DNA from: Spongospora subterranea f. sp. subterranea
Taxonomy: Eukaryota
Assembly: GCA_049724395.1 (NCBI GenBank)
Contig: JAUGWO010000131.1
Span: 1 to 64,000, forward strand
Direction: 5' to 3'
Length of the DNA stretch: 64,000 bases
Under the pieces are notes generated by a model. The model was not told the DNA's origin. It searched no databases and saw only the letters and a program-made list of their open reading frames with translations. A program made the position numbers and the translations under genes. Position 1 is the first letter of the stretch. Every line of letters starts with the position of its first letter. Below are positions 1-39,966 of the stretch, in pieces.

Positions 1-828
1 TTGGCCACACACCTGGCAATGTTTGAGCAACACCTATAGCCGTGTGTACAAGTTGAGATATTGCAAGCACCCAACTTATTTTGCTCAGAACTGATCGCAG
101 AAAACATTTTGACAACACCAATTACTGAAAGTCATAAAGAGGAATTAACACACTTTTCGATTCTTTGTTCCCTGCATTGATCAGTATGATGGGAAGCAAA
201 GAACCCAATTCAACTAACCAGGCCGATCGAAATAGGATGAACATTTCCAATGATGAACAAAGGAGAGTTTTTGTCCTAGAAAGGGTGTACCGGTAACCAT
301 AAACTGTGTACGTTCAACGACGTTCTAATGTCACTAACGGCCTGCTTGTGATGCTGAAGGAATAAATGAAATAATTTCTCCAACGCAGATCCTCAAATTC
401 TCTTCTTGAGCTTGCGAAGGTCCCGATTGATCCGATAGGTTAATCTGGCCAGCGAAGTAAGCCAGTGACCAGTTATTCACATACAAAATCGACCTCATGT
501 TTAATGATGGAAGAGCTCCAACCGTTAAAACCAAAAATAGAATTGGCAAGCCAGTGCTCAAACACAACTTGACCAGCTAAATAAGCGTGACCTGGTCCTA
601 TAAATCACCATAAAAATTGGACTCAAAGGAACACGAACATATCAAAACAACAACCAATGATGTATGCTCCAACAAGAAGACTCACCATTTGACCCGCCTG
701 TTGGTTTATAGGACATCATCGTATGACTTGGGCGTTTGTTAAGCCTCTCGGTGATCCGTCTTTTCTCGTCATCACTGTACGAGAATCGAGTCCCATCAAT
801 ATTCATCAATATATCATTTATGGTTTGA
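1..828. repeat. Direct repeat copy A of an ~825 bp segment (copy B 3618-4439)
   Basis: Bases 1-828 match 3618-4439 almost exactly. The visible difference is a 6-nt indel (ggcaagCCAGTGctcaaac vs ggcaagctcaaac). Copy A runs off the window start. Confidence 0.95.
334..828 (-). pseudogene. RAD52-family N-terminal fragment, 5'-truncated copy
   Basis: Same spliced reading as 3951-4447 (QTINDILMNIDG...GGSNG|PGHAYLAGQVVFEHWLANSIFGFNGWSSSIIKHEVDF|INLS...ICVG). It lacks the MAS start and carries an in-frame 6-nt insertion. Confidence 0.8.
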
Positions 829-875
829 ATAATAACACGGAATAAATACCAGTTCATGTTAACATGAGGAACCCT

Positions 876-985
876 ACACTGTACTCATCACATCACCACT
901 GCCATGTGGGGGCCACAATGTACACTGTACACGTCCCCACTGCCATGTGAGGGATACACTGTACACATCACCACTGCCGTGTGGG
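876..985. repeat. Three short imperfect tandem repeats (tacactgtac...ccactgccrtgtg)
   Basis: ccactgccatgtg, ccactgccatgtg and ccactgccgtgtg, each preceded by tacactgtac, spaced roughly 35-40 nt apart. Confidence 0.8.
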
Positions 986-1064
986 TGCCGCCACGACTAT
1001 AGACTCAATGTGGATCCAAATTGATCCAACACTGGGCGAAGTCACTTGAAAATGGGGGCCCAGA

Positions 1065-1133
1065 AAAGACTGGCCACTTTAACTGGCCATTTCGAAAAAG
1101 TGCGCGGATGGCCAGTTAAAGTGGCCAGTCTTT
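1065..1133. repeat. Perfect 26-bp inverted repeat with 17-nt loop
   Basis: aaagactggccactttaactggccat (1065-1090) is the reverse complement of atggccagttaaagtggccagtcttt (1108-1133). Confidence 0.95.
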
Positions 1134-1203
1134 GTACTATAGATACGAGAATAGACTGGCAACAAACTGATTGTGGCTCTTGGTCAATATATATTGGGTA
1201 CGT

Positions 1204-1375
1204 TGAATTCACTGGCTTGATTCACTGGCCGCACTTTTTCAAGCCAGTGAATTCAATATCTTGGTATGAGCAGTGAATTCACTGGCTTGATTCACTGGCT
1301 TGACGCATTTATCTGAGCCATGAATCATGCCAGGTCGAATTCACTGCTATACCAAGATATTGAAATCACTGGCTT
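1204..1375. repeat. Cluster of ttcactggc motifs in direct and inverted orientation
   Basis: tgaattcactggcttgattcactggc occurs at ~1204 and ~1274. aagccagtgaattcaatatcttggtat (~1241) pairs with ataccaagatattgaaatcactggctt (~1349). Confidence 0.85.
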
Positions 1376-1734
1376 ACTTCGCTGGCCAGATTAACCTATC
1401 GGATCAATCGGGACCTTCGCAAGCTCAAGAAGAGAATTTGAGGATCTGCGTTGGAGAAATTATTTCATTTATTCCTTCAGCATCACAAGCAGGCCGTTAG
1501 TGACATTAGAACGTCGTTGAACGTACACAGTTTATGGTATGGTTACCGGTCGTTGAACGTACACAGTTTACGGTTACCGGTACACCCTTTCTAGGACAAA
1601 AACCCTCCTTTGTTCATCATTGGATATTACCGGCGACCTCAAGAATATGCACAAGATGCACATCCAGTGCAACTGTACTATGTACTATTTCGATCGGCCT
1701 GTTTAGTTGAATTGGGTTCTTTGCTTCCCATCAT
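1367..1734. repeat. Inverted, internally rearranged copy of ~185-467 (and ~3802-4084)
   Basis: cactggcttacttcgctggccagattaacc...gaacgtacacagtttatggt is the reverse complement of ~296-467. Further matches continue to cttcccatcata, interrupted by a small tandem duplication and an insertion. Confidence 0.9.
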
Positions 1735-1779
1735 AATTGTATTTTCGTGCTCAATGCGGGGAACAAAAAGTCGAAAGGT

Positions 1780-2416
1780 GTGGGATATTCACGAGTTCAA
1801 CATCAAGCAGTTCGAATTCTTTCCACCTGATGCAGATCAGCATCTACCCGATGCTGATAAAGTTCCGTTTGCTATCAATGGCAACTGTTGTTACCGGTTT
1901 GAGTCAATGTCTGTCAAACCCAACCTAATGTCCCGGTTCAGCCACTGGCAATGGCGTTGTACTCGATCGAATTATATTCCTGTTGGGGAAAACCCGAAAG
2001 GAATTTCGGTAACCTACAAGAGGTGCTGTGGGGTGTTATTGTGTACCAATGGTGATTGTGCGGTTCGCATGCGGCCAAACCAGAACTACCCGACAAGGGT
2101 AACTGGCATGTAAGTGTGATTACATCTGCTATGAGACCTCATCTCAATGTCCTGCTGTAGGTGCCCTGTTTGTTCGATGGAATTGCGACATCAAATCCTT
2201 GTGAATGCGCCATTATGTGGGTGCAACACTTCGTGAAAGATCGCTGTATCATAATTCATGATGGGAATCATGAACATAAAATACCTCACGTCAAGAAACC
2301 CGACCACTACGGGAAGCAGGCGTTGAAGGACATTGTCATGGCAGCTCCAAGAAGGACCGCACAGCAATTGTTAGTCCCTACTCCAGGAACCAACGCAGAG
2401 TCGGTTCGTCTTACGC
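1780..2416 (+). mobile_element. GCM (WRKY-GCM1 superfamily) zinc-finger domain, copy 1, probable transposase N-terminus (degenerate)
   Basis: WQWRCTRSN...YKRCCGVLLCTNGDCAVRMRP, then an intron ending ctgtag at ~2160, then CPVCSMELRH/(frameshift)PCECAIMW...IHDGNHEHKIP. This follows the GCM pattern W-x-R...K-x-C-x-GV-x2-C...C...RP...CxxC...C...G-x-H-x-H-x2-P. Confidence 0.75.
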
Positions 2417-2666
2417 ATGAGGGGATGGCAATACTAAGGAAGACTTGATTTCCTATATAAAGGTTATTTATATGGAAAAAACTGAGTAAATGTTATCGTA
2501 AATGTGCTTTCTTCCCTGGTCGAGGGTTCGTCAGTAGTTGCTGATCGAAATGGTCAGGCCTAATCCTCCTGGTAGCGATATTTACGATAACATTTACTCA
2601 GTTTTTTCCATATAAATAACCTTTATATAGGAAATCAAGTCTTCCTTACGATTGCCATCCCCTCAT
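2417..2666. repeat. Foldback: 87-bp inverted arms (2417-2503 / 2580-2666), 76-nt spacer
   Basis: atgaggggatggcaat...gttatcgtaaat and its reverse complement, with 2 mismatches seen. Confidence 0.95.
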
Positions 2667-3074
2667 CATAAGATAAAACCCGTTTACTGTGCTCAACCAG
2701 ATTTTGCTGGAATGTCCACAAGATATGCAGGCTTTGTGGTCATTCCATTTTCGGGTTTGAATCGTAGGCATTATACGTTGATCGTAACTAAGTCATGGCT
2801 GATATAGCGTAAAATGATTTGCTGGAACAATCACGTTCAACCAAGCTTGAGAACTGCTTTGACAATGTGGCCAATCCTTGTATGCAGCACTGATTAATTC
2901 TCCATATTGTTTTCCTTGACCGCATCGATATTTTCAATACATCACTGAGTGGATGGTCGAACAGGCAGCCGAATCATCCTTACAGGCGGTCTTGGATGTA
3001 TTGATGAACGACGGTGCGTACGAGGAGACAGACAGAAGATGTTATGATCCAGGCTGCGATCAAGTATAAGCAAA

Positions 3075-3451
3075 ATGGGTGCCTGCAATCTCTCAACTTA
3101 TGCACATGGCTATAGGTGTTGCTAAAAGATGCTCGGTGTGTGGTGAAGATACCGGACAAAATCATGTTCGTCGAATTACCGCAAGATTTAATGTCAGCGG
3201 AAATTGACTGTAATTTGATTCTGAATGTTGGTGGCTGCAAATGGACGCAAGTAGGGCGCATTAGCGCCACACAACGTACCGGTATGCACTTTTACTCTCA
3301 TATACTACGAGCTGATGTGCCCATACCGGGCTGGTTTCATTATAATGATCTTGATAATGGCGGAAGGCCTGTACTTATCTCGCCGATCACCAATGGGCGT
3401 AAACAACTTTCTTTTTTCGTTTTCTACGTCAAAAATCCGGAGATAAACTGA
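3075..3451 (+). mobile_element. USP/C19-like cysteine peptidase C-terminal (His-box) fragment
   Basis: WTQVGRISATQRTGMHFYSHILR...GWFHYNDL...LSFFVFYVK resembles the USP His-box layout G-x-H-F/Y...W-x2-Y-N/D-D...L-x-Y. A diverged inverted paralog of its upstream part lies at ~3541-3690. Confidence 0.6.
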
Positions 3452-3617
3452 AAATTATTTCTTGTGTCTTTGTCTGCTATCTTTGATCATAAGCGCTTTT
3501 CAGGAAGGCCTTAGTCATACGCATATATGCTAGCTGCGTTAAATCAGATTACATTCTATTTCCGATGTCATTAAGCCTTGTAGTATTTCGATAAAAAAAC
3601 ATGATCTGTCCGGCAGT

Positions 3618-4439
3618 TTGGCCACACACCTGGCAATGTTTGAGCAACACCTATAGCCGTGTGTACAAGTTGAGATATTGCAAGCACCCAACTTATTTTG
3701 CTCAGAACTGATCGCAGAAAACATTTTGACAACACCAATTACTGAAAGTCATAAAGAGGAATTAACACACTTTTCGATTCTTTGTTCCCTGCATTGATCA
3801 GTATGATGGGAAGCAAAGAACCCAATTCAACTAACCAGGCCGATCGAAATAGGATGAACATTTCCAATGATGAACAAAGGAGAGTTTTTGTCCTAGAAAG
3901 GGTGTACCGGTAACCATAAACTGTGTACGTTCAACGACGTTCTAATGTCACTAACGGCCTGCTTGTGATGCTGAAGGAATAAATGAAATAATTTCTCCAA
4001 CGCAGATCCTCAAATTCTCTTCTTGAGCTTGCGAAGGTCCCGATTGATCCGATAGGTTAATCTGGCCAGCGAAGTAAGCCAGTGACCAGTTATTCACATA
4101 CAAAATCGACCTCATGTTTAATGATGGAAGAGCTCCAACCGTTAAAACCAAAAATAGAATTGGCAAGCTCAAACACAACTTGACCAGCTAAATAAGCGTG
4201 ACCTGGTCCTATAAATCACCATAAAAATTGGACTCAAAGGAACACGAACATATCAAAACAACAACCAATGATGTATGCTCCAACAAGAAGACTCACCATT
4301 TGACCCGCCTGTTGGTTTATAGGACATCATCGTATGACTTGGGCGTTTGTTAAGCCTCTCGGTGATCCGTCTTTTCTCGTCATCACTGTACGAGAATCGA
4401 GTCCCATCAATATTCATCAATATATCATTTATGGTTTGA
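3618..4439. repeat. Direct repeat copy B of 1-828
   Basis: Near-identical to 1-828 (offset 3617, then 3611 after the indel). Confidence 0.95.
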
Positions 4440-4447
4440 CTGGCCAT
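3951..4447 (-). pseudogene. RAD52: RAD52/Rad22-family single-strand annealing protein, spliced N-terminal part, 3'-truncated
   Basis: Exons 4447-4297, 4208-4102 and 4061-~3996 join by phase-consistent GT-AG introns. They give MASQ...FSYSDDEKRRITERLNKRPSHTMMSYKPTGGSNGPGHAYLAGQVVFELANSIFGFNGWSSSIIKHEVDFINLS...LRICVG, matching the Rad52 signature YxxGxxVxxLANxxFGF/YNGW...VDF. The downstream VRVxLKDGxxHEDxGxG part is absent. Confidence 0.85.
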
Positions 4448-4541
4448 TGTGGATTTTCGGATTATTATATACACCTGAGTGTATGCAATTCATGTTCCGG
4501 ACTTGCCGTGTTTCGCGTCGCATTTCTGTCTATTTCAGGTG

Positions 4542-5236
4542 ATGGATGTCGACGAGGTCAACCTCAGCTGGTCAATATCCAATTTCACTGGGGTCGACTT
4601 CAACTCCAATCCGGTGAAATATTTATCGAACCATCATCCAGATTGCGACGGGGTTCCTTTGCGCCCAAATGAAGGTGCACGTTTTTTTTTGAACACGCGG
4701 CATCAAAACCCAATATGGTTGCCAACTATTCTGAATGGCAGTGGCGAGTAACAAAGACACGATACTGGCCATTATTGGACAGAAAAAGAGCTGTCAAAAT
4801 CATTTCGAAGATGTGCAACGGGGTTATTTCGTGCTCCAACGCCAAGTGTTCGTATTCTCTGCGTCCTAAACAGAATAATCCGGACTCATTCGACCATTCG
4901 TACTGCTGCAGTTTCATAGCAGGCGCATCTAAACTTTTATGCAGGTGTCACGTTTGTCTGGGTGAATTGACCCGTTTGAAATGCAATGCCAAATGCCGGT
5001 GGATTGAGGCTGCTTTCTGCAATAAAAGCGACGAACCCTGGGGTCTTCTGGGGAGAATATCTGCAACAACTGCCACAGGTGGGCATTTTTTCGTACACGT
5101 TAAAAGGGATGAACCGGGCAAGATGCCAGGATTCTATAATTACGATGACCTTACAAACGGAGGAAGGGCCGTTTTCGATGAGAAACCAATAAATTTCAAA
5201 GCCAATTCCGTTTATGTGGCGTACGGTAAAAAATAA
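4542..5236 (+). mobile_element. GCM domain copy 2 (divergent) fused by apparent internal deletion to a USP-like His-box
   Basis: WQWRVTKTRY...SKMCNGVISCSNAKCSYSLRP, a probable intron at the position seen in copy 1, then CHVCLGELTRLKC...RW. This runs directly into WGLLGRISATTATGGHFFVHVKR...GFYNYDDL...VYVAYGKK. There is a frameshift near 4690-4715. Confidence 0.7.
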
Positions 5237-5821
5237 GCATAAGGTTTCCTTATTAATGCCAACACGAATCGGATTGATGTTGTCAGCATTTAAGTGCCGC
5301 AGAAATTCTCCCCAACAGACCCCAGGATTCGTCGCCCAGAAGAACTTCATATAGAAAGGACAATCAATTGAAACACCAACGGGTACCCAAATATAGGTGA
5401 CATTTTTACAATACAATCAGGCCACGGGTGGGCAGTTTTTCGCAGGAAGAAAGGGGAAGTTTCCGATCTTATGCTGGCTTAAACTATTTCAAGTTAGTGG
5501 TAAATACAAATGGTTAACCTGAATATGTCTGCCTGAATGATGTGTTGAGGACAACGTTTTCTACGCGGGTGAGGAAAAAGGCGGTCGACGTTTGTCAGTA
5601 GTTCCCAGTTTTGTTCGCTGAACCGTGCGGTGACAATTGTTCATTCACGTAAAAAAGGGATGAACCCGGCAAGATGCCATGATTAAGCCAACTACGTTGA
5701 CACGGTACACTCAGGTGTATATGATAATATTTCAATTCCAAATCCACAATGGCCAGTCTTTTATAGCCCTCCCTTGAAAATACATCCAAATGTATATTGA
5801 TCTACTGTATTGTCACGTCCT

Positions 5822-6660
5822 TCATGATCGTAACCTAACGGATGAGGATATGATTGTCATCCTTATGGCGGCTACATTGCTTTCACCATTCTGCATGGAC
5901 TCTTCGGCACTCTCCAACCGGTCTTGGAGAGTTGTTAAAGAAATGTTCTCTTGATCATGTAGTGCTTCAATCACCGCAGGGAAGCGACCTCGGCAGCCCA
6001 CCATAAGGATGTCAATCATATCCTCATCCGGTAGGTTACGATCATGAAGCCTTAACTGATCCCTCAGTGATTGCTTCTCCCGGATGTACTCCAGGACGCC
6101 CTGCTCGCCCCCATCCGTACAGACCAAAACATAGCCTTTAACGTCGCCGGCTTGATGCGGCTACTTTTACCATACTTGATTTCTAACATTTGAATGAGAA
6201 GCGTGCAGGATTCGGTGTCATCAAATTGTGACCAGATCTGGGGCACCATCGCCAGTAGCAGGACACCTGCTAACTGTTTATCAGTTTCTTGGTCGACAAT
6301 TTCCAAAGTTAGGAACTTGGAGAGGCGGTATGTCTTGAAGGCCAACTTGACCGTCTTGAACCGATCGTTGTTCTTCTTTTAGCGCTTTATTCTTCGCATG
6401 AGTTAATCTTCGAAGAGCGAACTGAAGGATGATTGACAGATTCTTCATCCTTCAGTTTGCTCTTTGAAGATTAACTCATGCGAAGAATAAAGCGCTAAAA
6501 GAAGAACAACGAGCTCAAGCTAAAGCTGCTGGTAATACAGCACTGGTAGTTGTTTTCTCCTATCAGTTGGGGTTGTATAAGCAAGTTGAGCTTTGAAGGA
6601 TCAACTTCATTGCCGTTTCGCTTGCTGGTGTTGTTTCTGCCATATCTGGGCCCATAACCA
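5822..6660 (-). mobile_element. Ty1/copia LTR retrotransposon remnant: PBS plus frameshifted gag
   Basis: TGGTTATGGGCCCAG at 6660-6646 (minus) is the copia-type initiator-Met half-tRNA primer binding site, followed at once by an ATG. ORFs 6345-6064 and 6127-5822 (LEIKYGKSS...EYIREKQSLRDQLR...DEDMIDILMVG...FPAVIEAL...LQDRLESAEE) resemble copia Gag (UBN2-like). Confidence 0.8.
6365..6512. repeat. Foldback: 68-bp inverted arms (6365-6432 / 6445-6512), 12-nt loop, inside the copia gag
   Basis: tcgttgttcttcttttagcgc...actgaaggatga and its reverse complement, with 2 mismatches seen. Confidence 0.95.
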
Positions 6661-7250: not shown

Positions 7251-7985
7251 GTAGCGTTAGAATGATAGCATAGACTGCGGTAACCATTGATCCTGCCAGG
7301 ACTCTAATAGAATATCTTTCGTTACTTGGGTTTAATCACAGGCCTTTGGACAGAAGGTGGTCATCATTATTGTAAAACAAAAAGGAGGTACTTACAAGGT
7401 CATTTGATCCGCATTGCTGACGACTCATCAAGCAAGGAGCCAAAACCGCTGTCATCATCTGATGATTCACCAATGGATTCAAAAAATGAGATTATCAATG
7501 CAGTAATAAAATGATCAAAAAAATATACCAGATCGCAACGGAGTCGATATAATAGTTCTCGCCCCGACTCCATCAACATCTGTAACTTGTTCGACGTCCA
7601 ACGAATATTAATTCGCGAAACCTCTGCTAAGCGGTCATGGCAACGTTTTGAACAAAATGTTGAGGAATGATTGGAGAGAATACCAGGCTGCAGCGGTTCA
7701 GAGGTGGCAGTCCTACCCTCGACAGCAACGCAAACCGTATAATGGTCGGGATTAAACGCGCTACTGATTTGCGCCACTACTATGTCGCCATGATGTCTAA
7801 TGTCAGATGATACGGTTGGGTCAAATCTCAAGACATTGCCAAATACGTACAGGTTAGAGTCTGGTTCGGCCTGACCAAAAATACGACTGGCTCGATATCG
7901 ACACTGTGATTTTCAAAAACAGGTCTCTTCCTCTTCAGAAAAACCATTGTAGAAATCACTGTTGCGGCGAAATTCGACATACCTA

Positions 7986-8203
7986 CCGTATTCCTCGGAG
8001 CTCTGTACCCCCCAAACCCTAAACTCCGTGAGAGGCTAGCGACATCATTATTAACGCTACATTTCCCGAAATATCTCTTTTGGATAGGGTATCGGATACC
8101 TTACAAGTTTCCCAGTGGGAAATTTACTGTATTTTACAATGCGTAGCTGTCGGGGCTTCACGGAGTTTAGGGTTTGGGGGGTACAGAGCTCCGAGGAATA
8201 CGG
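7986..8203. mobile_element. MITE, 218 bp, 46-bp perfect TIRs, TA target-site duplication (Tc1/mariner-pogo type ends)
   Basis: TA|ccgtattcctcggagctctgtaccccccaaaccctaaactccgtga ... tcacggagtttagggtttggggggtacagagctccgaggaatacgg|TA. Confidence 0.85.
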
Positions 8204-9295
8204 TAGGCGGTATCATCTCCATCGTCGGAACAAGTCTTGGCGCATGCCTAGGAGGGTGGCTAATCCCTTGGTCACATTGGTGGACAAGGGCCAGGAAGTG
8301 CTGCGCTTCCGATCGGATTTTATCGACAAAGACGGCGAGCGTCAGATGAGAGCTGAGAAAGAGCTTCTCATACTTAAGGTGATGGTTGGCAAAACTCGGG
8401 AAACTCTGTAAACAATCCTCAATGAAGGCAAAATCCTTGAACACCGATTTCAGTGTGTGGAATAACAGTATCAGACTCTTTATCAAAATTTTTCACTGGA
8501 ACTTCGGTTTTGATGACTGATGGAGCTTCGGCTTTTGAGCGATATCATGATCAATGTCAGGCCAACGCAACGTTGAACTTTTAGATCCTGTAGAGATGCG
8601 TTTTCTTATACAAGTCCTCAACCCATTGTATGAGCCTCGTCTTTGACAGAAGCAGTGGTCTGAGCTCGAAAAATACGCAATGGCAATGGTTCTGTTCCTG
8701 ATGAGGCTATTCACCTTCACAGTTTCGGGACCATCAGTTTGTGCGTATTCTCGTTGGATTGTTGGTTTATCAAAATGTTAAACCATATTTGTTTAACATC
8801 GAAGGTGCGTTTGTATACTGTTGGGATACGGGTAACTGCTTTTACAGCGAACTGAACTTGTGGTCGCGTAGGCCACAGGCACGAAGGACAGAACGCATCA
8901 AGCGGCAAACCAGGCCCGTTATATTGCTAAAATACCAGTACCACATGTACATGACTAAGAATATGACAGATTCTCTTGATTTTCAGTCCACTTATCGCTG
9001 GTCAAACATGTTGTTTTGCTGATACTGATATATATATGGAGATGAAGGAGATATATCAGATATATCAACATCACTACAGATATTAATGGTGTAGTGACAT
9101 TGGAGGATTGAGGAATAGGTCGATTAATATACAATGGGATCTGTCCGGTATTGTGTTCCCCAATTGAATCAACAGTTGGGACCGGGTTCAATTGGGTATT
9201 TCGCAGTCCGCAGCAGATGATTGCCAACCAAAGGGCCAGTAGATGGGCTGGGTAAATTACCCCCAATCTCTGACGATCCTCCTTAATTCCTCATC

Positions 9296-19957: not shown

Positions 19958-20675
19958 TATATGAATATTTCGTCAGCCAAAGGTCCTCAACTGTTGAGTG
20001 ACGTAATGTGCGCCAGGTCGGGCAGGACGCAAGATCTATCATCTATGGGATGGTGATCGGTTACAGTGACAGTACCACAGTGACTGAGCCTCTTTAGCAG
20101 TGCCACAGAGATCTCTATTTATATCACTATCCGTCAGTGGTTAATTAACACGTTGATGACTGACAGGGGACACACGCCAGTCAGCTGAGCAACTGGATGG
20201 GCTGTATAATTGACTGAGCAATCTACCGTCTGCACTGGCGCTGAGTCTCTATCTAACGTCTCAACCGGCCACCACCTTTAAATCCATCCTTAGACCCTCG
20301 TATCAATATGAGTACCACTCACAACTCAATCGATTGTCGTCTGACCGTGGGGCCATATTGACATCTGCTGATTCACACTCTAGAACGGGTTTGTCAGAGG
20401 TTCTAGACTCTGATTCTAGTCCATAGTTGCAGGTGCGGTTCTCCCCTAGATCTCTCTCTGTCTTGTTCTCCCGACCTCCCCCTCTTACTGTCTCGCCCAA
20501 TTACGCCATAACGCCGTCACAGCATCGTCGAAGTATTCATCGTTAGGCGGCATTAGATACTGGCGAAACAACGTCCGGGCAGGTGAACAAGCTTGGTGAG
20601 CTTAATCCCTCTTCTCTAATCCACCAATCCCTGCGTTGATCGTAGCCTTGCATTCTATGCAAGACTAAATCAACA

Positions 20676-21722
20676 ATGTTGCTGAATCTTGTGACTTTTT
20701 TTTTCATGAAGGGTCTACAGCGAACTTACCATTTAACTTTGGTTATGGTTGGACTTCTGGAGTGCGACACCATGGATTCGGTCCATAAAAGTGTCACCAA
20801 GCTCAAAGGTCGCCCTGTAGTTGGATCTGGAGCTGGATTAAACGGGTCGTACTTGATCAACTCATTAGCTGCTAACGATAACGACAAGCCCGAATGGATT
20901 TTCAAGCCCAGAAGTGAGGAAGCTGAAGTTTCAGGTGAAACCTTAAAGTCGGGCGCAATCAAAGGCACTTCTTGCGTCAAGGAAGTTGCTGCTTATTACG
21001 TTGATCATGAAGGGTTTTCGGGCGTTCCAGAAACTCGTGCGATCAACGCCAGCGTGCAACTCGAGGCGTCAAAATATATCATGGATTTTGGCAGTCTGCA
21101 GAGATTTGTGGCCCATGATGGCTCCTGTGAAGAATATGGCTCATCTCTGTTTGAGGTTGACAATATCCACCGCATTGCCCTTCTCGATCTTCGCATCGCC
21201 AATTGCGATCGCCATGAAGGGAATCTGCTGGCCGTTCGCGAAGGCTCAAAGCTGCGAGCGGTCCCCATCGATCATGGATACTGTCTGCCGAATTGGCGAT
21301 ACCTAAGCGATTTGTATTTCTGCTGGAGTTCCTGGCGCCAGGCCAATGTGCCGTTCTCTGAGGCCACCAAGCAATATATTGCAGGACAGAAACCATTTAT
21401 GGATATTGCCAATCTTCTCGATATAGGTGTTGATCACGACAGTGTCATCACCTACCTTGTCTGTTCAATATTCGTCCAGAGCGCCGTCGCCGGTGGCCTG
21501 AGTCTGGCTCAGATCGCCAGGGCCATGCAAAGAACGGCTCAAATTGGGTTGGGAGAGCCATCGCAGTTTGAGCAGTTGATTTCTCAAGCCGCGATCGCTA
21601 CAGGATTTTCCAATTTCCGATTTAGCGGTCGATCCGACTGGAACCTACCTATTGTTGGCCGATTTCTGAAGCATTTTTTCAAAAGTTGCATGCACTTCCT
21701 TTCTCGCCCGTGTCAAAAATAA
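20676..21722 (+). CDS. Type II phosphatidylinositol 4-kinase (plant PI4K-gamma-like), paralog 1
   Basis: GLNGSY, IFKPRSEE, KEVAAYYVDHEGFSGVPET, GSLQRFV, LDLRIANCDRHEGNLL and PIDHGYCLP. Confidence 0.92.
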   Translation: MLLNLVTFFFMKGLQRTYHLTLVMVGLLECDTMDSVHKSVTKLKGRPVVGSGAGLNGSYLINSLAANDNDKPEWIFKPRSEEAEVSGETLKSGAIKGTSCVKEVAAYYVDHEGFSGVPETRAINASVQLEASKYIMDFGSLQRFVAHDGSCEEYGSSLFEVDNIHRIALLDLRIANCDRHEGNLLAVREGSKLRAVPIDHGYCLPNWRYLSDLYFCWSSWRQANVPFSEATKQYIAGQKPFMDIANLLDIGVDHDSVITYLVCSIFVQSAVAGGLSLAQIARAMQRTAQIGLGEPSQFEQLISQAAIATGFSNFRFSGRSDWNLPIVGRFLKHFFKSCMHFLSRPCQK

Positions 21723-25979: not shown

Positions 25980-26282
25980 ACATATCTTCTGTTATGCGGC
26001 CCCTGCATCGATCGGTGAATCCTGTAGGGATGAGTTTAGGGTTTTAAGGAGCTTATTGGCTTTATTATGAATGGCAATGCTGAGTTCAGCGTTCGTAGAT
26101 CATGAGCCTTTGGCGGCCTCTGCAGTCGAGTTTTGGTTGTCCGCCAAAGGCTCATTTTATGATCTACGAACGCTGAGCTCAGCATTGTCATTCATAATAA
26201 AGCCAATAAGCTCCTAAAAACCCTAAACTCATCCCTACAGGATTCACCGACCGATGCAGGGGCCGCATATCAGAAGATATGT
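25980..26282. repeat. Foldback: ~137-bp inverted arms (25980-26116 / 26141-26282), 24-nt loop
   Basis: acatatcttctgttatgcggcccctgcatcg...gagcctttggcgg vs ccgccaaaggctc...cagaagatatgt, with a few substitutions and one 5-nt indel. The outer gaaaacagtacta also pairs with tagtactgttttc at ~26314. Confidence 0.95.
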
Positions 26283-28935: not shown

Positions 28936-30243
28936 TTATTTAACAGATTTAAAGTCTTGAAGTAGATCGAGAGCTGTGTAGAGAAAGTGTTGAAAAAAAT
29001 TGGCGACAATGGGAAGTCTCCAGTCAGATAGATATTGTAAGGACATGCCGTTGAATCCAGTACGATGTGCAGCGTCGTAAACAAGACTTTCGAATGGTGA
29101 CGGCTGCGAGGCTTTTTCGTTGAAATCGCGTTGCATGAGCTCCGCTATTTGCCTGAGGTTTAATCCGGCCAACACGCAGCGTTGCACGAACAACGAGCAT
29201 AATACGTAAGTAATCACATTATCATGGCCGACTCCAATTGATAGTAACCTAGGAACATCCAAAAGAGGATCCAAGGATAGTATATATTGCTTTGACCTTT
29301 CAGAAAACGGCAAGCTCGCCTGACGCCAAGAACTCCAGCAAAAATACAAATCGTTAAGATTACGCCACGTAGGTAAACAATATCCATGATCGATTGGAAC
29401 AAGTTGAAGCTTGCCATTCTCACGAACCACTAGCAGATTGCCTTCGTGGCGATCACAGTTACCGATTCGAAGATCCAGGAGACCAATCTGGTGGACATGC
29501 TCGACATCGAATAATGAAGAGCCATATTCTTCACATGAGCCTTCGGATTCAATGTACTTCTGAAGACTGCCAAAATCGGTAAAAGTCGATGCTTCCAATT
29601 GTACATTAGCAGTGATCGCTGTCGTTTCAGGAACACCAGCAAATCCCATATGATCAACAACGTACGCAGCAACTTCCTTGATGCAAGATGTCCCTTTCGT
29701 TGCACCGGATTTCAGTACTTCACCCGATTTTTCAGCTTCTTGACTCCTTGGCTTGTATACCCATTCAGGCCTATCATCTTCTTTCGCGGTGATGGCGTTC
29801 AAAAAGTATGAACCGCTTAAACCAGCTTCTGAACCAACAATTGGCCTTCCCTTGAAAGTTGGATTGGGAGATGTTGATACTGATTTAGGACTTTCTGGTT
29901 GAAGAGTAACACATAAGAAGTGACAAGTTTGATCGACGGTGGACACGATAAGAACAATCACGCTCATCTTGGATTGTGGATCATGAAAGGCGTCTGGTAA
30001 AGTATTAGGTACATGTACCTGTTTCAGAGGATAATCGAATGGGACACAAGCTAAAGGCTCCGTCTTGAAAAAGTATAAGCCCGAACGTGCGAGCACTAAG
30101 GCGGGCCTGATCAGGAGTCGGAGATGTGGACAAAAAAATCGTTGATCAAGCGCTGACAGACGCCAATCAATGAGCCCGAATACGTAGTGATAGAGGGGAT
30201 GACGAGACGACAGAACAGCACAATGGATATGAGCACTGATCAC
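28936..30243 (-). CDS. Type II phosphatidylinositol 4-kinase, paralog 2 (true start probably downstream, near 29967 or later)
   Basis: Same motif set as paralog 1: GLSGSY, VYKPRSQE, KEVAAYVVDH, LDLRIGNCDRHEGNLL and PIDHGYCLP. Confidence 0.92.
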   Translation of the reverse strand: MISAHIHCAVLSSRHPLYHYVFGLIDWRLSALDQRFFCPHLRLLIRPALVLARSGLYFFKTEPLACVPFDYPLKQVHVPNTLPDAFHDPQSKMSVIVLIVSTVDQTCHFLCVTLQPESPKSVSTSPNPTFKGRPIVGSEAGLSGSYFLNAITAKEDDRPEWVYKPRSQEAEKSGEVLKSGATKGTSCIKEVAAYVVDHMGFAGVPETTAITANVQLEASTFTDFGSLQKYIESEGSCEEYGSSLFDVEHVHQIGLLDLRIGNCDRHEGNLLVVRENGKLQLVPIDHGYCLPTWRNLNDLYFCWSSWRQASLPFSERSKQYILSLDPLLDVPRLLSIGVGHDNVITYVLCSLFVQRCVLAGLNLRQIAELMQRDFNEKASQPSPFESLVYDAAHRTGFNGMSLQYLSDWRLPIVANFFQHFLYTALDLLQDFKSVK

Positions 30244-31373
30244 AGTGGATATACCAATGGGCTACAATAGGTACTCTTCGATCCAGGTCTCACTCAAGGA
30301 ATATTCCGCCAAAGGACAGGAAGGCGCATGTCACGGAGAATCTGTTTTCGGAACAGTTGGGTAACCCTACACAGTGTGGACGAGGGGGTCTTCCAGTGGT
30401 ACACCTGAGATTACATTACCTTAAGTACACTTACAGTACTGTATCTATAGCATAGGTGTAGTGATATTCGCCAGAGCAGTGCAATTCGATACACAATCGG
30501 TGCCGGATTCCGCGAGGTACACTGTAGGTGTAAACTAGTTCCTTGAGTGCAATGACCATTTGACGTATGCGTGATTTCTAAAACAAATTTTGGCAATTCC
30601 TGGACCAGGTTGTGTGTCTATAGCAATTCTTTGTTAGATTCGTTTTAAGTGGGCATTATCGGTAAGAAACCCAGGCGACACCAAATATCAAGTAGAAAAT
30701 ATATCGCCAAGTGAATCGGATATTGCTGCCCTACTAGATATTTAAACCAATATCGCTTTCATATATTTTTTTATCAAAGTCTGAACCCTTCGGAGGTTGC
30801 CGAATGTAGAGACCTTCAAAACTAATCATTATAAATGAGAAGAGGGTAGCAGTTCCGTTTGCTTGAGGTAGTGGTCGGCCATCAACGCGGGTCTTCTGAA
30901 CTATGCGAGACTAAAGAGTTGATCAATTTGAGAAGAGAGTTTATTCAGCGGATGATTGTCAGGTTGCCCCCCCCCCATTGTTGATCCAGCAATTGGTCAC
31001 TGTAAGACAGTGGCTGGAAAGTCCGGGCGGACAGTCCTCCCAGTCGCCAAGCTCCGCCGAGCGACATCATCACTGTCATGCCCGCAGCTCGACGACTCAA
31101 CGGTAATTTCAACATATAATCCAAGAAAAATAGCGAGAAAATCAAGCACTGTTATCCATCTGAAACCAATTGATACCCTCTAGTCTCGAGCTGCCATCAA
31201 ACCATAAATATGTCTCCGTAACCGCTCTTAAACCTTCTGTACTAAGCGTGCGCAAATGAAAACTGCCACATTCTGTTTTTGGCGAGAATTTCTTAAATAT
31301 ATTTACACTGCTTCAGCTGCATTTATGTCCAGCTGAAGAGCGCCAAACGAAATGAAAAATACATCCAGCAGAA

Positions 31374-39003: not shown

Positions 39004-39966
39004 CGATGTCCAAATTACTGTTTTCAGGAGTGTTGTTCTTTCTGGTATCATTGGGATCTTGTGCCCCAATTCAATTCCAAAAATCGCAAGTTTTCAAAGA
39101 CTAACGTAAGGCAATCATTAATAAGTTGGTAAAAAGAATTGGTTAACAATTGAAAAACTAATCGGAGAATACAGAGAACAAACAGCTGTGGATTTGGCTC
39201 ACAAGATTGACGTCGAGGATTTCGATGATTGGATCTCCGTTGATGGAGACTTTTATGGGAAGTTTTAATGGATCAATCCTAACACTAACCGCCCCTTCAC
39301 CACAACTTTTATCAATTTGACACTTTTCTACGACCAGTAATTCGAATTGATTTTGATTCGGTTTGATCTGATATATAAATAGGATAAATGTCGTTGAGAT
39401 TCTGATAGAGAGAGGGGCCAATTGAAATTGCTGATTTGATCTCACAGGGACAGTGATATCGTCCGTCAGGAGATGTCGAAACTTCATCAATCTCCAGAAC
39501 CGTACTAGAAAAACTGCTTCAATGAACGCTGTTTCAAATATGAATCAACAGACTGGCCCCTCTCTCTATCAGAATCTCAACGACATTTATCCTATTAATA
39601 TATCAGGTCAAACCGAATCAAAATTGATTCGAATTTACTGGTTGCAGAAAAGTGCCAAATTGATAAAAGTTGTGGTGAAGGGGCGGTTAGTGTTAGGATT
39701 GATCCATTAATACGTCCCATAAAAGTCTCCATCAACGGAGATCCAATCATCGAAATCCTCGACATCAATCTTGTGGGCCAAATCCACAGCTGTTTGTTCT
39801 CTTTATACTCCGATTAGTATTTCAATTGTTAACCAATTCTTTTTACCAACTTATTAATGATTGCCTTACGTAAGTCTTTGAAAACTTGCGATTTTGGAAA
39901 TTGGGGCACAAGATCCCAATGATACCAGTAAGAACAACACTCCTGAAAACAGTAATTTGGACATCG
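39004..39966. repeat. Large foldback: ~415-bp inverted arms (39004-39420 / 39554-39966), ~133-nt spacer
   Basis: cgatgtccaaattactgttttcaggag...gagagaggggcca vs tggcccctctctc...cagtaatttggacatcg, with scattered substitutions and small indels. No TSD seen. Confidence 0.95.

Follow-up and report, generated by a model that had tools for sequence, protein, structure and literature searches.

Within the 64,000-nucleotide stretch of Spongospora subterranea f. sp. subterranea DNA analysed here (hereafter the window), we found 355 bases derived from the 5′ portion of a RAD52 gene, present in two copies among high-depth repeats, and both copies are probably dead scraps left by very recent transposon-linked copying. 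The RAD52-derived features are as follows.

4085-4439, minus strand: RAD52 copy A, 355 bp, recognized by 0 differences to one low-depth contig in each DNA run, by Rad52 homology and by RNA splicing
4439-4297, minus strand: copy A, partial exon 1
4296-4209, minus strand: copy A, intron 1
4208-4102, minus strand: copy A, exon 2
4101-4085, minus strand: copy A, first 17 nt of intron 2
468-828, minus strand: RAD52 copy B, differing from copy A only by six bases inserted in frame in exon 2
551-556, minus strand: the insertion of copy B, CACTGG on the minus strand, which adds His-Trp and completes CACTGGCTTG
4417-4415 (copy A) and 806-804 (copy B), minus strand: common in-frame ATG, probable start of the parent gene

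Exon 2 matched the Rad52 family in Pfam (PF04098, E 9.4e-10, 39.1 bits against a curated cut-off of 20.3, profile positions 30-62 of 153) as well as human RAD52 structures (E 5.8e-6). On a profile made from 26 Rad52 proteins, exon 2 scored 63.1 bits and exons 1-2 together 80.3 bits, a gain of 17 bits from exon 1. The 26 proteins (lengths 120-650, with no window sequence) were taken from 68 database matches; three matches were omitted from the profile, and the match was repeated in two of those three. All 68 matches, at E up to 0.001, came from a search of 1.84 billion proteins, and the best of them was the Rad52 of Plasmodiophora brassicae (SPR00128.1, P0001), with 57% identity to the spliced exons 1-2 over 67 residues (E 2e-26). 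Exon 1 by itself scored only with close or pooled relatives and had no Rad52 match in Pfam or PDB, and a metagenome scan with it gave a single locus from 383 candidate stretches, a bacterial gene and a chance match. Exon 2 had no match at threshold in a word-indexed protein search, a result that weighs little. With P. brassicae Rad52 as the tblastn query, the window contains two RAD52 sites (4390-4066 and 779-449), while the 3′ half of RAD52 is absent from the whole 64 kb.

P. brassicae Rad52 (P0001) has the whole annealing domain, whereas the pieces here break off after VDF (Pfam position 62 of 153), before the second half of that domain, as the earlier note had stated; a complete annealing domain with the beta-beta-beta-alpha stem is absent. 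This stem lines the Rad52 ring, according to the part of the structural account cited (PMC10046612). Mapped onto it, the fragment end would fall early in the stem-forming region of the ring, and the RAD52 fragments are predicted to be inert because they end there. Both copies, truncated as they are, are probably without a working protein, in agreement with what had been supposed of them. Judging by how far it lies from the conserved block of P. brassicae Rad52, the ATG at 4417 and 806 is the likely start of the parent gene. Translation from this common ATG after splicing of intron 1 would yield no more than 79 or 81 residues and end before most of the annealing domain. Copy B had been described as lacking a start codon, which does not hold, given in-frame ATGs at 806 and, further upstream, at 857. 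The ATG at 4447 was rejected as a RAD52 start, as it lies in the end of a repeat (family 2, below), outside the RAD52-derived DNA.

To place the two copies against a parent gene, we compared window positions 3540-5800 with four of the 20 public runs listed, two of DNA (X1 and X2) and two of RNA (X3 and X11). These data are assembled contigs, which show presence and not absence and from which rare variants are dropped; X3 was taken as RNA by an automatic guess, and it holds no unspliced contig across intron 1. In both DNA runs, one low-depth parent contig (33.8 and 34.1 kb) carries 4085-4439 without a difference, crosses 4085 unbroken and departs from the window at that position into about 33.5 kb unlike the window. 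Depth drops at 4085 from hundreds or thousands to 29.7 and 54.1, values that over 4148-4375 belong to the parent contig alone. Intron 1 (4296-4209, GT..AG, 88 nt), a junction the earlier note had proposed, is spliced in both RNA runs, in contigs that are those of the parent gene. The RNA contigs (1,721 nt in X3, and X11) depart from the window at 4101, after which the X3 contig has a further 1,257 nt. The loose end of X11 past 4101 continues in frame as VDF-EKSEGNRWSIG (hand translation), in which NRWSIG is similar to the NRYHMG found at the corresponding position of P. brassicae Rad52. An intact or spliced parent RAD52 is thus present in the four other data sets. Copy A would be a DNA-level copy and very young, as it is identical to the parent with the intron retained.

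These results also redraw a three-exon model of a spliced RAD52 gene (4447-4297, 4208-4102 and 4061 onward), an open reading of 122 residues whose two introns (88 and 40 nt) have GT..AG ends. Exons 1-2 stood, by the profile and by the P. brassicae match, and the spliced peptide does match PF04098 above cut-off, by way of exon 2. Exon 3 (4061-3951) is repeat DNA of high depth: it reached only E 0.29 alone on the Rad52 profile and added 0.4 bits against P. brassicae Rad52, and the 85.1 bits of all three exons on the profile include a gain from 9 weakly aligned residues. The second junction (4101-4062) was found in neither of the two RNA runs, where the RNA departs at 4101 and the pieces listed account for all RNA depth at 4072-4147. 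The exact phase agreement once cited for exon 3 carries little weight, since 20% of 20,000 random sites do likewise when a YAG 20-60 nt downstream is asked to open 36 or more codons. The core exon was also said to appear only in the wrong frame; exon 2 is stop-free in 4215-4093, and a splice is indeed needed to link it with exon 1. As for the three partial copies then proposed, two are confirmed (4085-4439 and 468-828) and the third, 1367-1500, is part of a repeat family 1 copy, high-depth DNA with no Rad52 similarity. We also considered SITSRPLVTLE (about 3975-3945) as an extra Rad52 strand past a damaged intron and rejected it, as 3850-4085 scores at most 0.2 bits in all three frames and is repeat DNA. 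Gene models in this region mix host exons with repeat DNA, and the locus serves chiefly as a caution on this point.

The sequence around the two copies is made up largely of two repeat families. From 1 to 5757, the order is deleted repeat, copy B, unique DNA, motif array, family 1, deleted repeat, copy A and family 2.

1-468, minus strand: second copy of the deleted repeat, 100% identical to 3618-4085 and cut by the window start
829-1054, minus strand: flank of copy B on its upstream side, with no second match in the window
1055-1375, no strand assigned: (C/G)ACTGG motif array with hairpins, heading family 1, recognized by motif density and hairpin score
1366-3541, plus strand: repeat family 1, longer degenerate copy, which contains 1367-1500
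1595-2113 and on, plus strand: Cys/His-rich coding piece of family 1
3116-3451, plus strand: C-terminal piece of family 1 resembling a ubiquitin-protease His box
3542-4085, minus strand: family 1, internally deleted copy, which holds the proposed exon 3 and joins RAD52 intron 2
4438-5757, plus strand: repeat family 2, internally deleted, with inverted ends that begin GACTGGCCATTGTGG, and the source of the ATG at 4447

Positions 1-828 and 3618-4439 match at 822 of 828 positions, the 6-base insertion being the sole difference. Depth over 3540-4071 is 73-301x (X1) and 15-56x (X2) that of the RAD52 segment, which marks this DNA as a repeat and is not a measure of copy number. At 4085, other contigs continue into sequence like window 1336-1365. 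Family 2 has an inverted repeat (4438-4483/5706-5758, 81%) and, in most bins, elevated depth. The coding pieces of the two families are related to one another, with identities of 34% (Cys/His) and 47% (C-terminal) (tblastn E 1e-18 and 4e-11). In both families (1595-3451 and 4673-5236), the Cys/His-rich piece is followed by the His-box-like piece, with strong contig coverage in X3. At the deletion of family 2 at 5024, loose ends of X1 and X2 continue in frame as RTIIIHDGC (hand translation), which resembles DRCIIIHDGNHEH in family 1 near 2250. Within the deleted repeat, an X3 contig skips 47 nt at 3787-3835 with CT..AC ends, a minus-strand intron, which suggests that the repeat family is itself transcribed and spliced. 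The stretch at 829-1054 upstream of copy B may be the original 5′ flank of the parent gene: past the fork at 4439, X2's parent contig extends for a further 261 bp and the RNA contig of X3 for 213 nt, lengths that would fit 829-1089. A 37-nt repeat with CACCACTGCCATGTG-like cores also occurs there three times, at 875-1000.

We infer that the repeats are non-autonomous derivatives of DNA transposons, and families 1 and 2 possibly represent an undescribed transposon lineage. Neither the Cys/His nor the His-box piece had a Pfam match, nor a match at threshold in word-indexed protein searches (which is weak evidence), and scans of viral contigs with the two pieces returned none among 27 and none among 78 candidates. 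For the His-box alignment, the sole PDB match was the USP9X His box (E 1.0); the Cys/His piece, whose pattern we take to recall a GCM-type finger, had no finger match in Pfam or PDB. Fold models of the His-box and Cys/His pieces (pLDDT 34.7 and 32.5) were both too poor for a structure search. Neither a transposase (DDE) nor a helicase (RepHel) was found at the repeats, and no target-site duplication was found at the ends inspected. Compared with MULEs, the repeats have inverted ends of about 50 bp, with no DDE match and no 8-11-bp duplication, in a window that contains only deleted copies; an autonomous parent may exist. Compared with CACTA/CMC elements, CACTGG stands one base from the junction yet is internal in other copies, and no 3-bp duplication was found. 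Compared with HLE2/Helentron elements, T runs flank family 2 on both sides, the 3′ stem-loop has a z score of 0.09 and no RepHel piece is present.

All three breaks in RAD52 DNA sit at a (C/G)ACTGG motif. At the 4085 junction, repeat sequence begins one base ahead of CACTGG (4084), with an overlap of 1 base; at 4439, RAD52 overlaps GACTGG by 2 bases (4 against one X3 contig). The third break is the insertion of copy B, and the suggestion in the earlier note that it fits the local repeat motif was borne out, as its CACTGG completes CACTGGCTTG, a sequence found elsewhere in the window only at 1210, 1240, 1280 and 1293. Motif density is 26 per kb at 1020-1400 versus 0.8 per kb at 5801-64000, and the hairpin at 1200-1310 has a z score of -6.15. 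Sites no more than 1 nt from a motif start account for 1-4% of the positions in family 1 and for 0.45% in family 2. Of all possible 6-base insertions in the segment, 0.9% would generate the motif and 0.0015% the 10-mer. As the motif was chosen once it had been noticed, these percentages are guides rather than tests.

Under the explanation we favour, the repeat would have become joined to RAD52 intron 2 at its motif array, through insertions close together, incomplete excision or template switching. The resulting block of repeat plus RAD52 would then have been duplicated locally (1-828 and 3618-4439), after which one copy would have gained the 6-base insertion templated by the motif and the other a second element at 4439; an intact parent RAD52 is assumed elsewhere in the same genome. 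Copy A sits between the ends of two different families and not within one element, and there is no sign that the RAD52 piece moved as a unit. Also counting against this explanation, no contig bridging 4085 or 4439 is among those listed for the four runs, and the parent contigs of X1 and X2 cross 4085 unbroken. In its favour, the X1 parent contig stops exactly at the fork at 4439, where the depth left unexplained by the listed pieces is 2962 base x depth in X1 versus 232 in X2 and 0 in X3, and the contig end and this excess are a hint that the fork exists in reads. The window letters at 3862 and 3883, a further point against, occur in none of the covering contigs listed, although contigs drop rare variants.

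Other explanations of the locus have to be weighed against this one. Genome amplification or the assembly of a repeat cluster could have produced the junctions and the duplication artificially, with a single ordinary RAD52 in the genome, a reading that we consider unlikely. It would account for the complete lack of substitutions, both against the parent and between the copies, for junctions present in no contig among those listed, and for 296-468 being a perfect inverted copy of 1366-1538; amplification chimeras, in the part of the source cited (PMC1855051), form at 2-21 complementary nt and mostly in inverted orientation. Beyond 173 bp, however, the inverted arm is unlike its neighbour and has deletions and substitutions of its own, 3540-3831 occurs as a single contig in other runs, and the X1 contig stops at the fork. 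Neither an insertion of the motif in one copy nor three breaks at the motif is expected from chimeras, and five of the six inverted-repeat pairs elsewhere in the window have mismatched arms. A further explanation, quite unlikely in our judgement, takes copy B for the 5′ half of the isolate's own RAD52 in its original place, severed by the repeat in intron 2 and with an excision footprint in exon 2, copy A being a local duplicate and RAD52 lacking or impaired. Counted from 828, the 261 bp of the X2 contig reach 1089, a point that lies roughly the length of one assembly word into the repeat head near 1055-1060, and the 213 nt of the RNA contig would end at 1041. Both figures are a matter of lengths only and not of sequence, which counts against this explanation, and so do the four other data sets with an intact or spliced gene; that 829-1054 is unique in the window and that the 3′ half of RAD52 is missing from it would be as expected.

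A bolder reading goes further: an unclassified plasmodiophorid DNA-transposon family, with zinc-finger-like and ubiquitin-protease-like pieces and internal ACTGG break or switch points, would have hit the host's single RAD52 three times in this isolate and produced a natural RAD52-broken lineage of a protist that parasitizes plants. We regard this as very unlikely. Least probable is a three-exon chimeric transcript encoding a 122-residue truncated Rad52 with a possible dominant-negative effect. Its reading is open with GT..AG sites and the repeat in it is covered by RNA contigs, but the 4101-to-4061 joint appeared in neither RNA run, with depth fully accounted for, in runs that may be from fragment-free isolates. 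An open exon of this kind arises at 20% of random sites, and the Rad52 part ends at Pfam position 62 of 153. The dominant-negative effect raised in the earlier note finds no support, either in the chimeric splice, carried by no contig of the two RNA runs, or in the extent of the fragment.

Recent transposon-linked copying, the reading we prefer, has parallels in elements that carry pieces of host genes. Like the single-copy Pack-TIRs of animals, as far as the cited part of the source describes them (PMC8277862), the locus combines a short intron-bearing host fragment with DNA-transposon-like sequence and is young, with few copies. Microhomology at junctions is reported for Pack-TIR formation in the same cited part (Tan et al. 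2021, PMC8277862), and the overlaps of 1 and 2-4 bases found here are consistent with it, at junctions that are internal. Unlike Pack-TIRs as described there, the fragment lies between two families with no target-site duplication seen, its breaks fall at one repeated motif, and the host is a likely plasmodiophorid. For Pack-CACTA, close-set insertions and incomplete excisions in genes are documented in the portion of the study cited (Catoni et al., PMC6379663). The likeness to these elements, within that portion (PMC6379663), extends to genic DNA between close elements, several hits per gene, a footprint-like insertion and a CACT-like motif; unlike them, the elements here point apart rather than forming direct repeats, and neither a CACTA transposase nor a 3-bp duplication was found. 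As in Pack-type elements generally, the host fragment retains introns and has a parent, with 0 differences to the 34-kb contig in both DNA runs. It is bounded by family 1 on the left; on the right, copy A meets family 2 and copy B meets unique DNA. No target-site duplication was seen around the composite at the ends inspected, the outer ends being undefined and one lying outside the window. By analogy, the locus is best regarded as working like Pack-TIR and neighbouring Pack-CACTA formation and as a member of neither, because the fragment is not enclosed by the ends of one element. The repeats themselves, with their short inverted ends flanked by T runs and a ubiquitin-protease-like piece, are reminiscent of HLE2/Helentron elements as described in the cited part of HELIANO (PMC11417382). 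MULEs with WRKY-GCM1 fingers are described in the cited parts of two reports (PMC1702500, PMC6446971). The Cys/His pattern of the repeats may resemble a GCM-type finger, for which there was no profile match. Unlike HLE2 or MULE elements in these descriptions, the repeats show no RepHel or DDE, no significant 3′ stem-loop and no 8-11-bp duplication.

Literature listings showed us no account of RAD52 fragments in plasmodiophorid repeats; repeat libraries in the supplements of genome papers on plasmodiophorids may already name these families. As found, the locus is an ordinary, very young duplication of a gene fragment in a repeat cluster, followed at base-level resolution. Its significance would grow if the repeats turned out to be a new transposon lineage; and were the isolate's only RAD52 broken, the locus would provide a natural test of the behaviour of a plasmodiophorid genome without single-strand annealing.

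Elsewhere in the window, six inverted repeats (2409-2673, 5820-6049, 6365-6512, 7982-8207, 25980-26282 and 39004-39966) have arms of 50-418 bp that are 94-100% alike, without evident target duplications. Several of them duplicate coding-like DNA, and the word TTTAGGG occurs in two of the six. A weak copia-type gag match (PF14223, E 0.0018, below cut-off) at 5825-6160 on the minus strand overlaps one of these inverted repeats. Two intron-poor inverted paralogues, 20646-21722 (plus strand), which matches the PI3/PI4-kinase family, and 28936-30261 (minus strand), are 72% alike in DNA over 570 bp. Ordinary eukaryotic short-intron genes lie in 11000-58500, among them those for fibrillarin, a WD40 protein, a short-chain dehydrogenase, G-alpha, DJ-1/PfpI, a protein kinase and a calpain-like piece.
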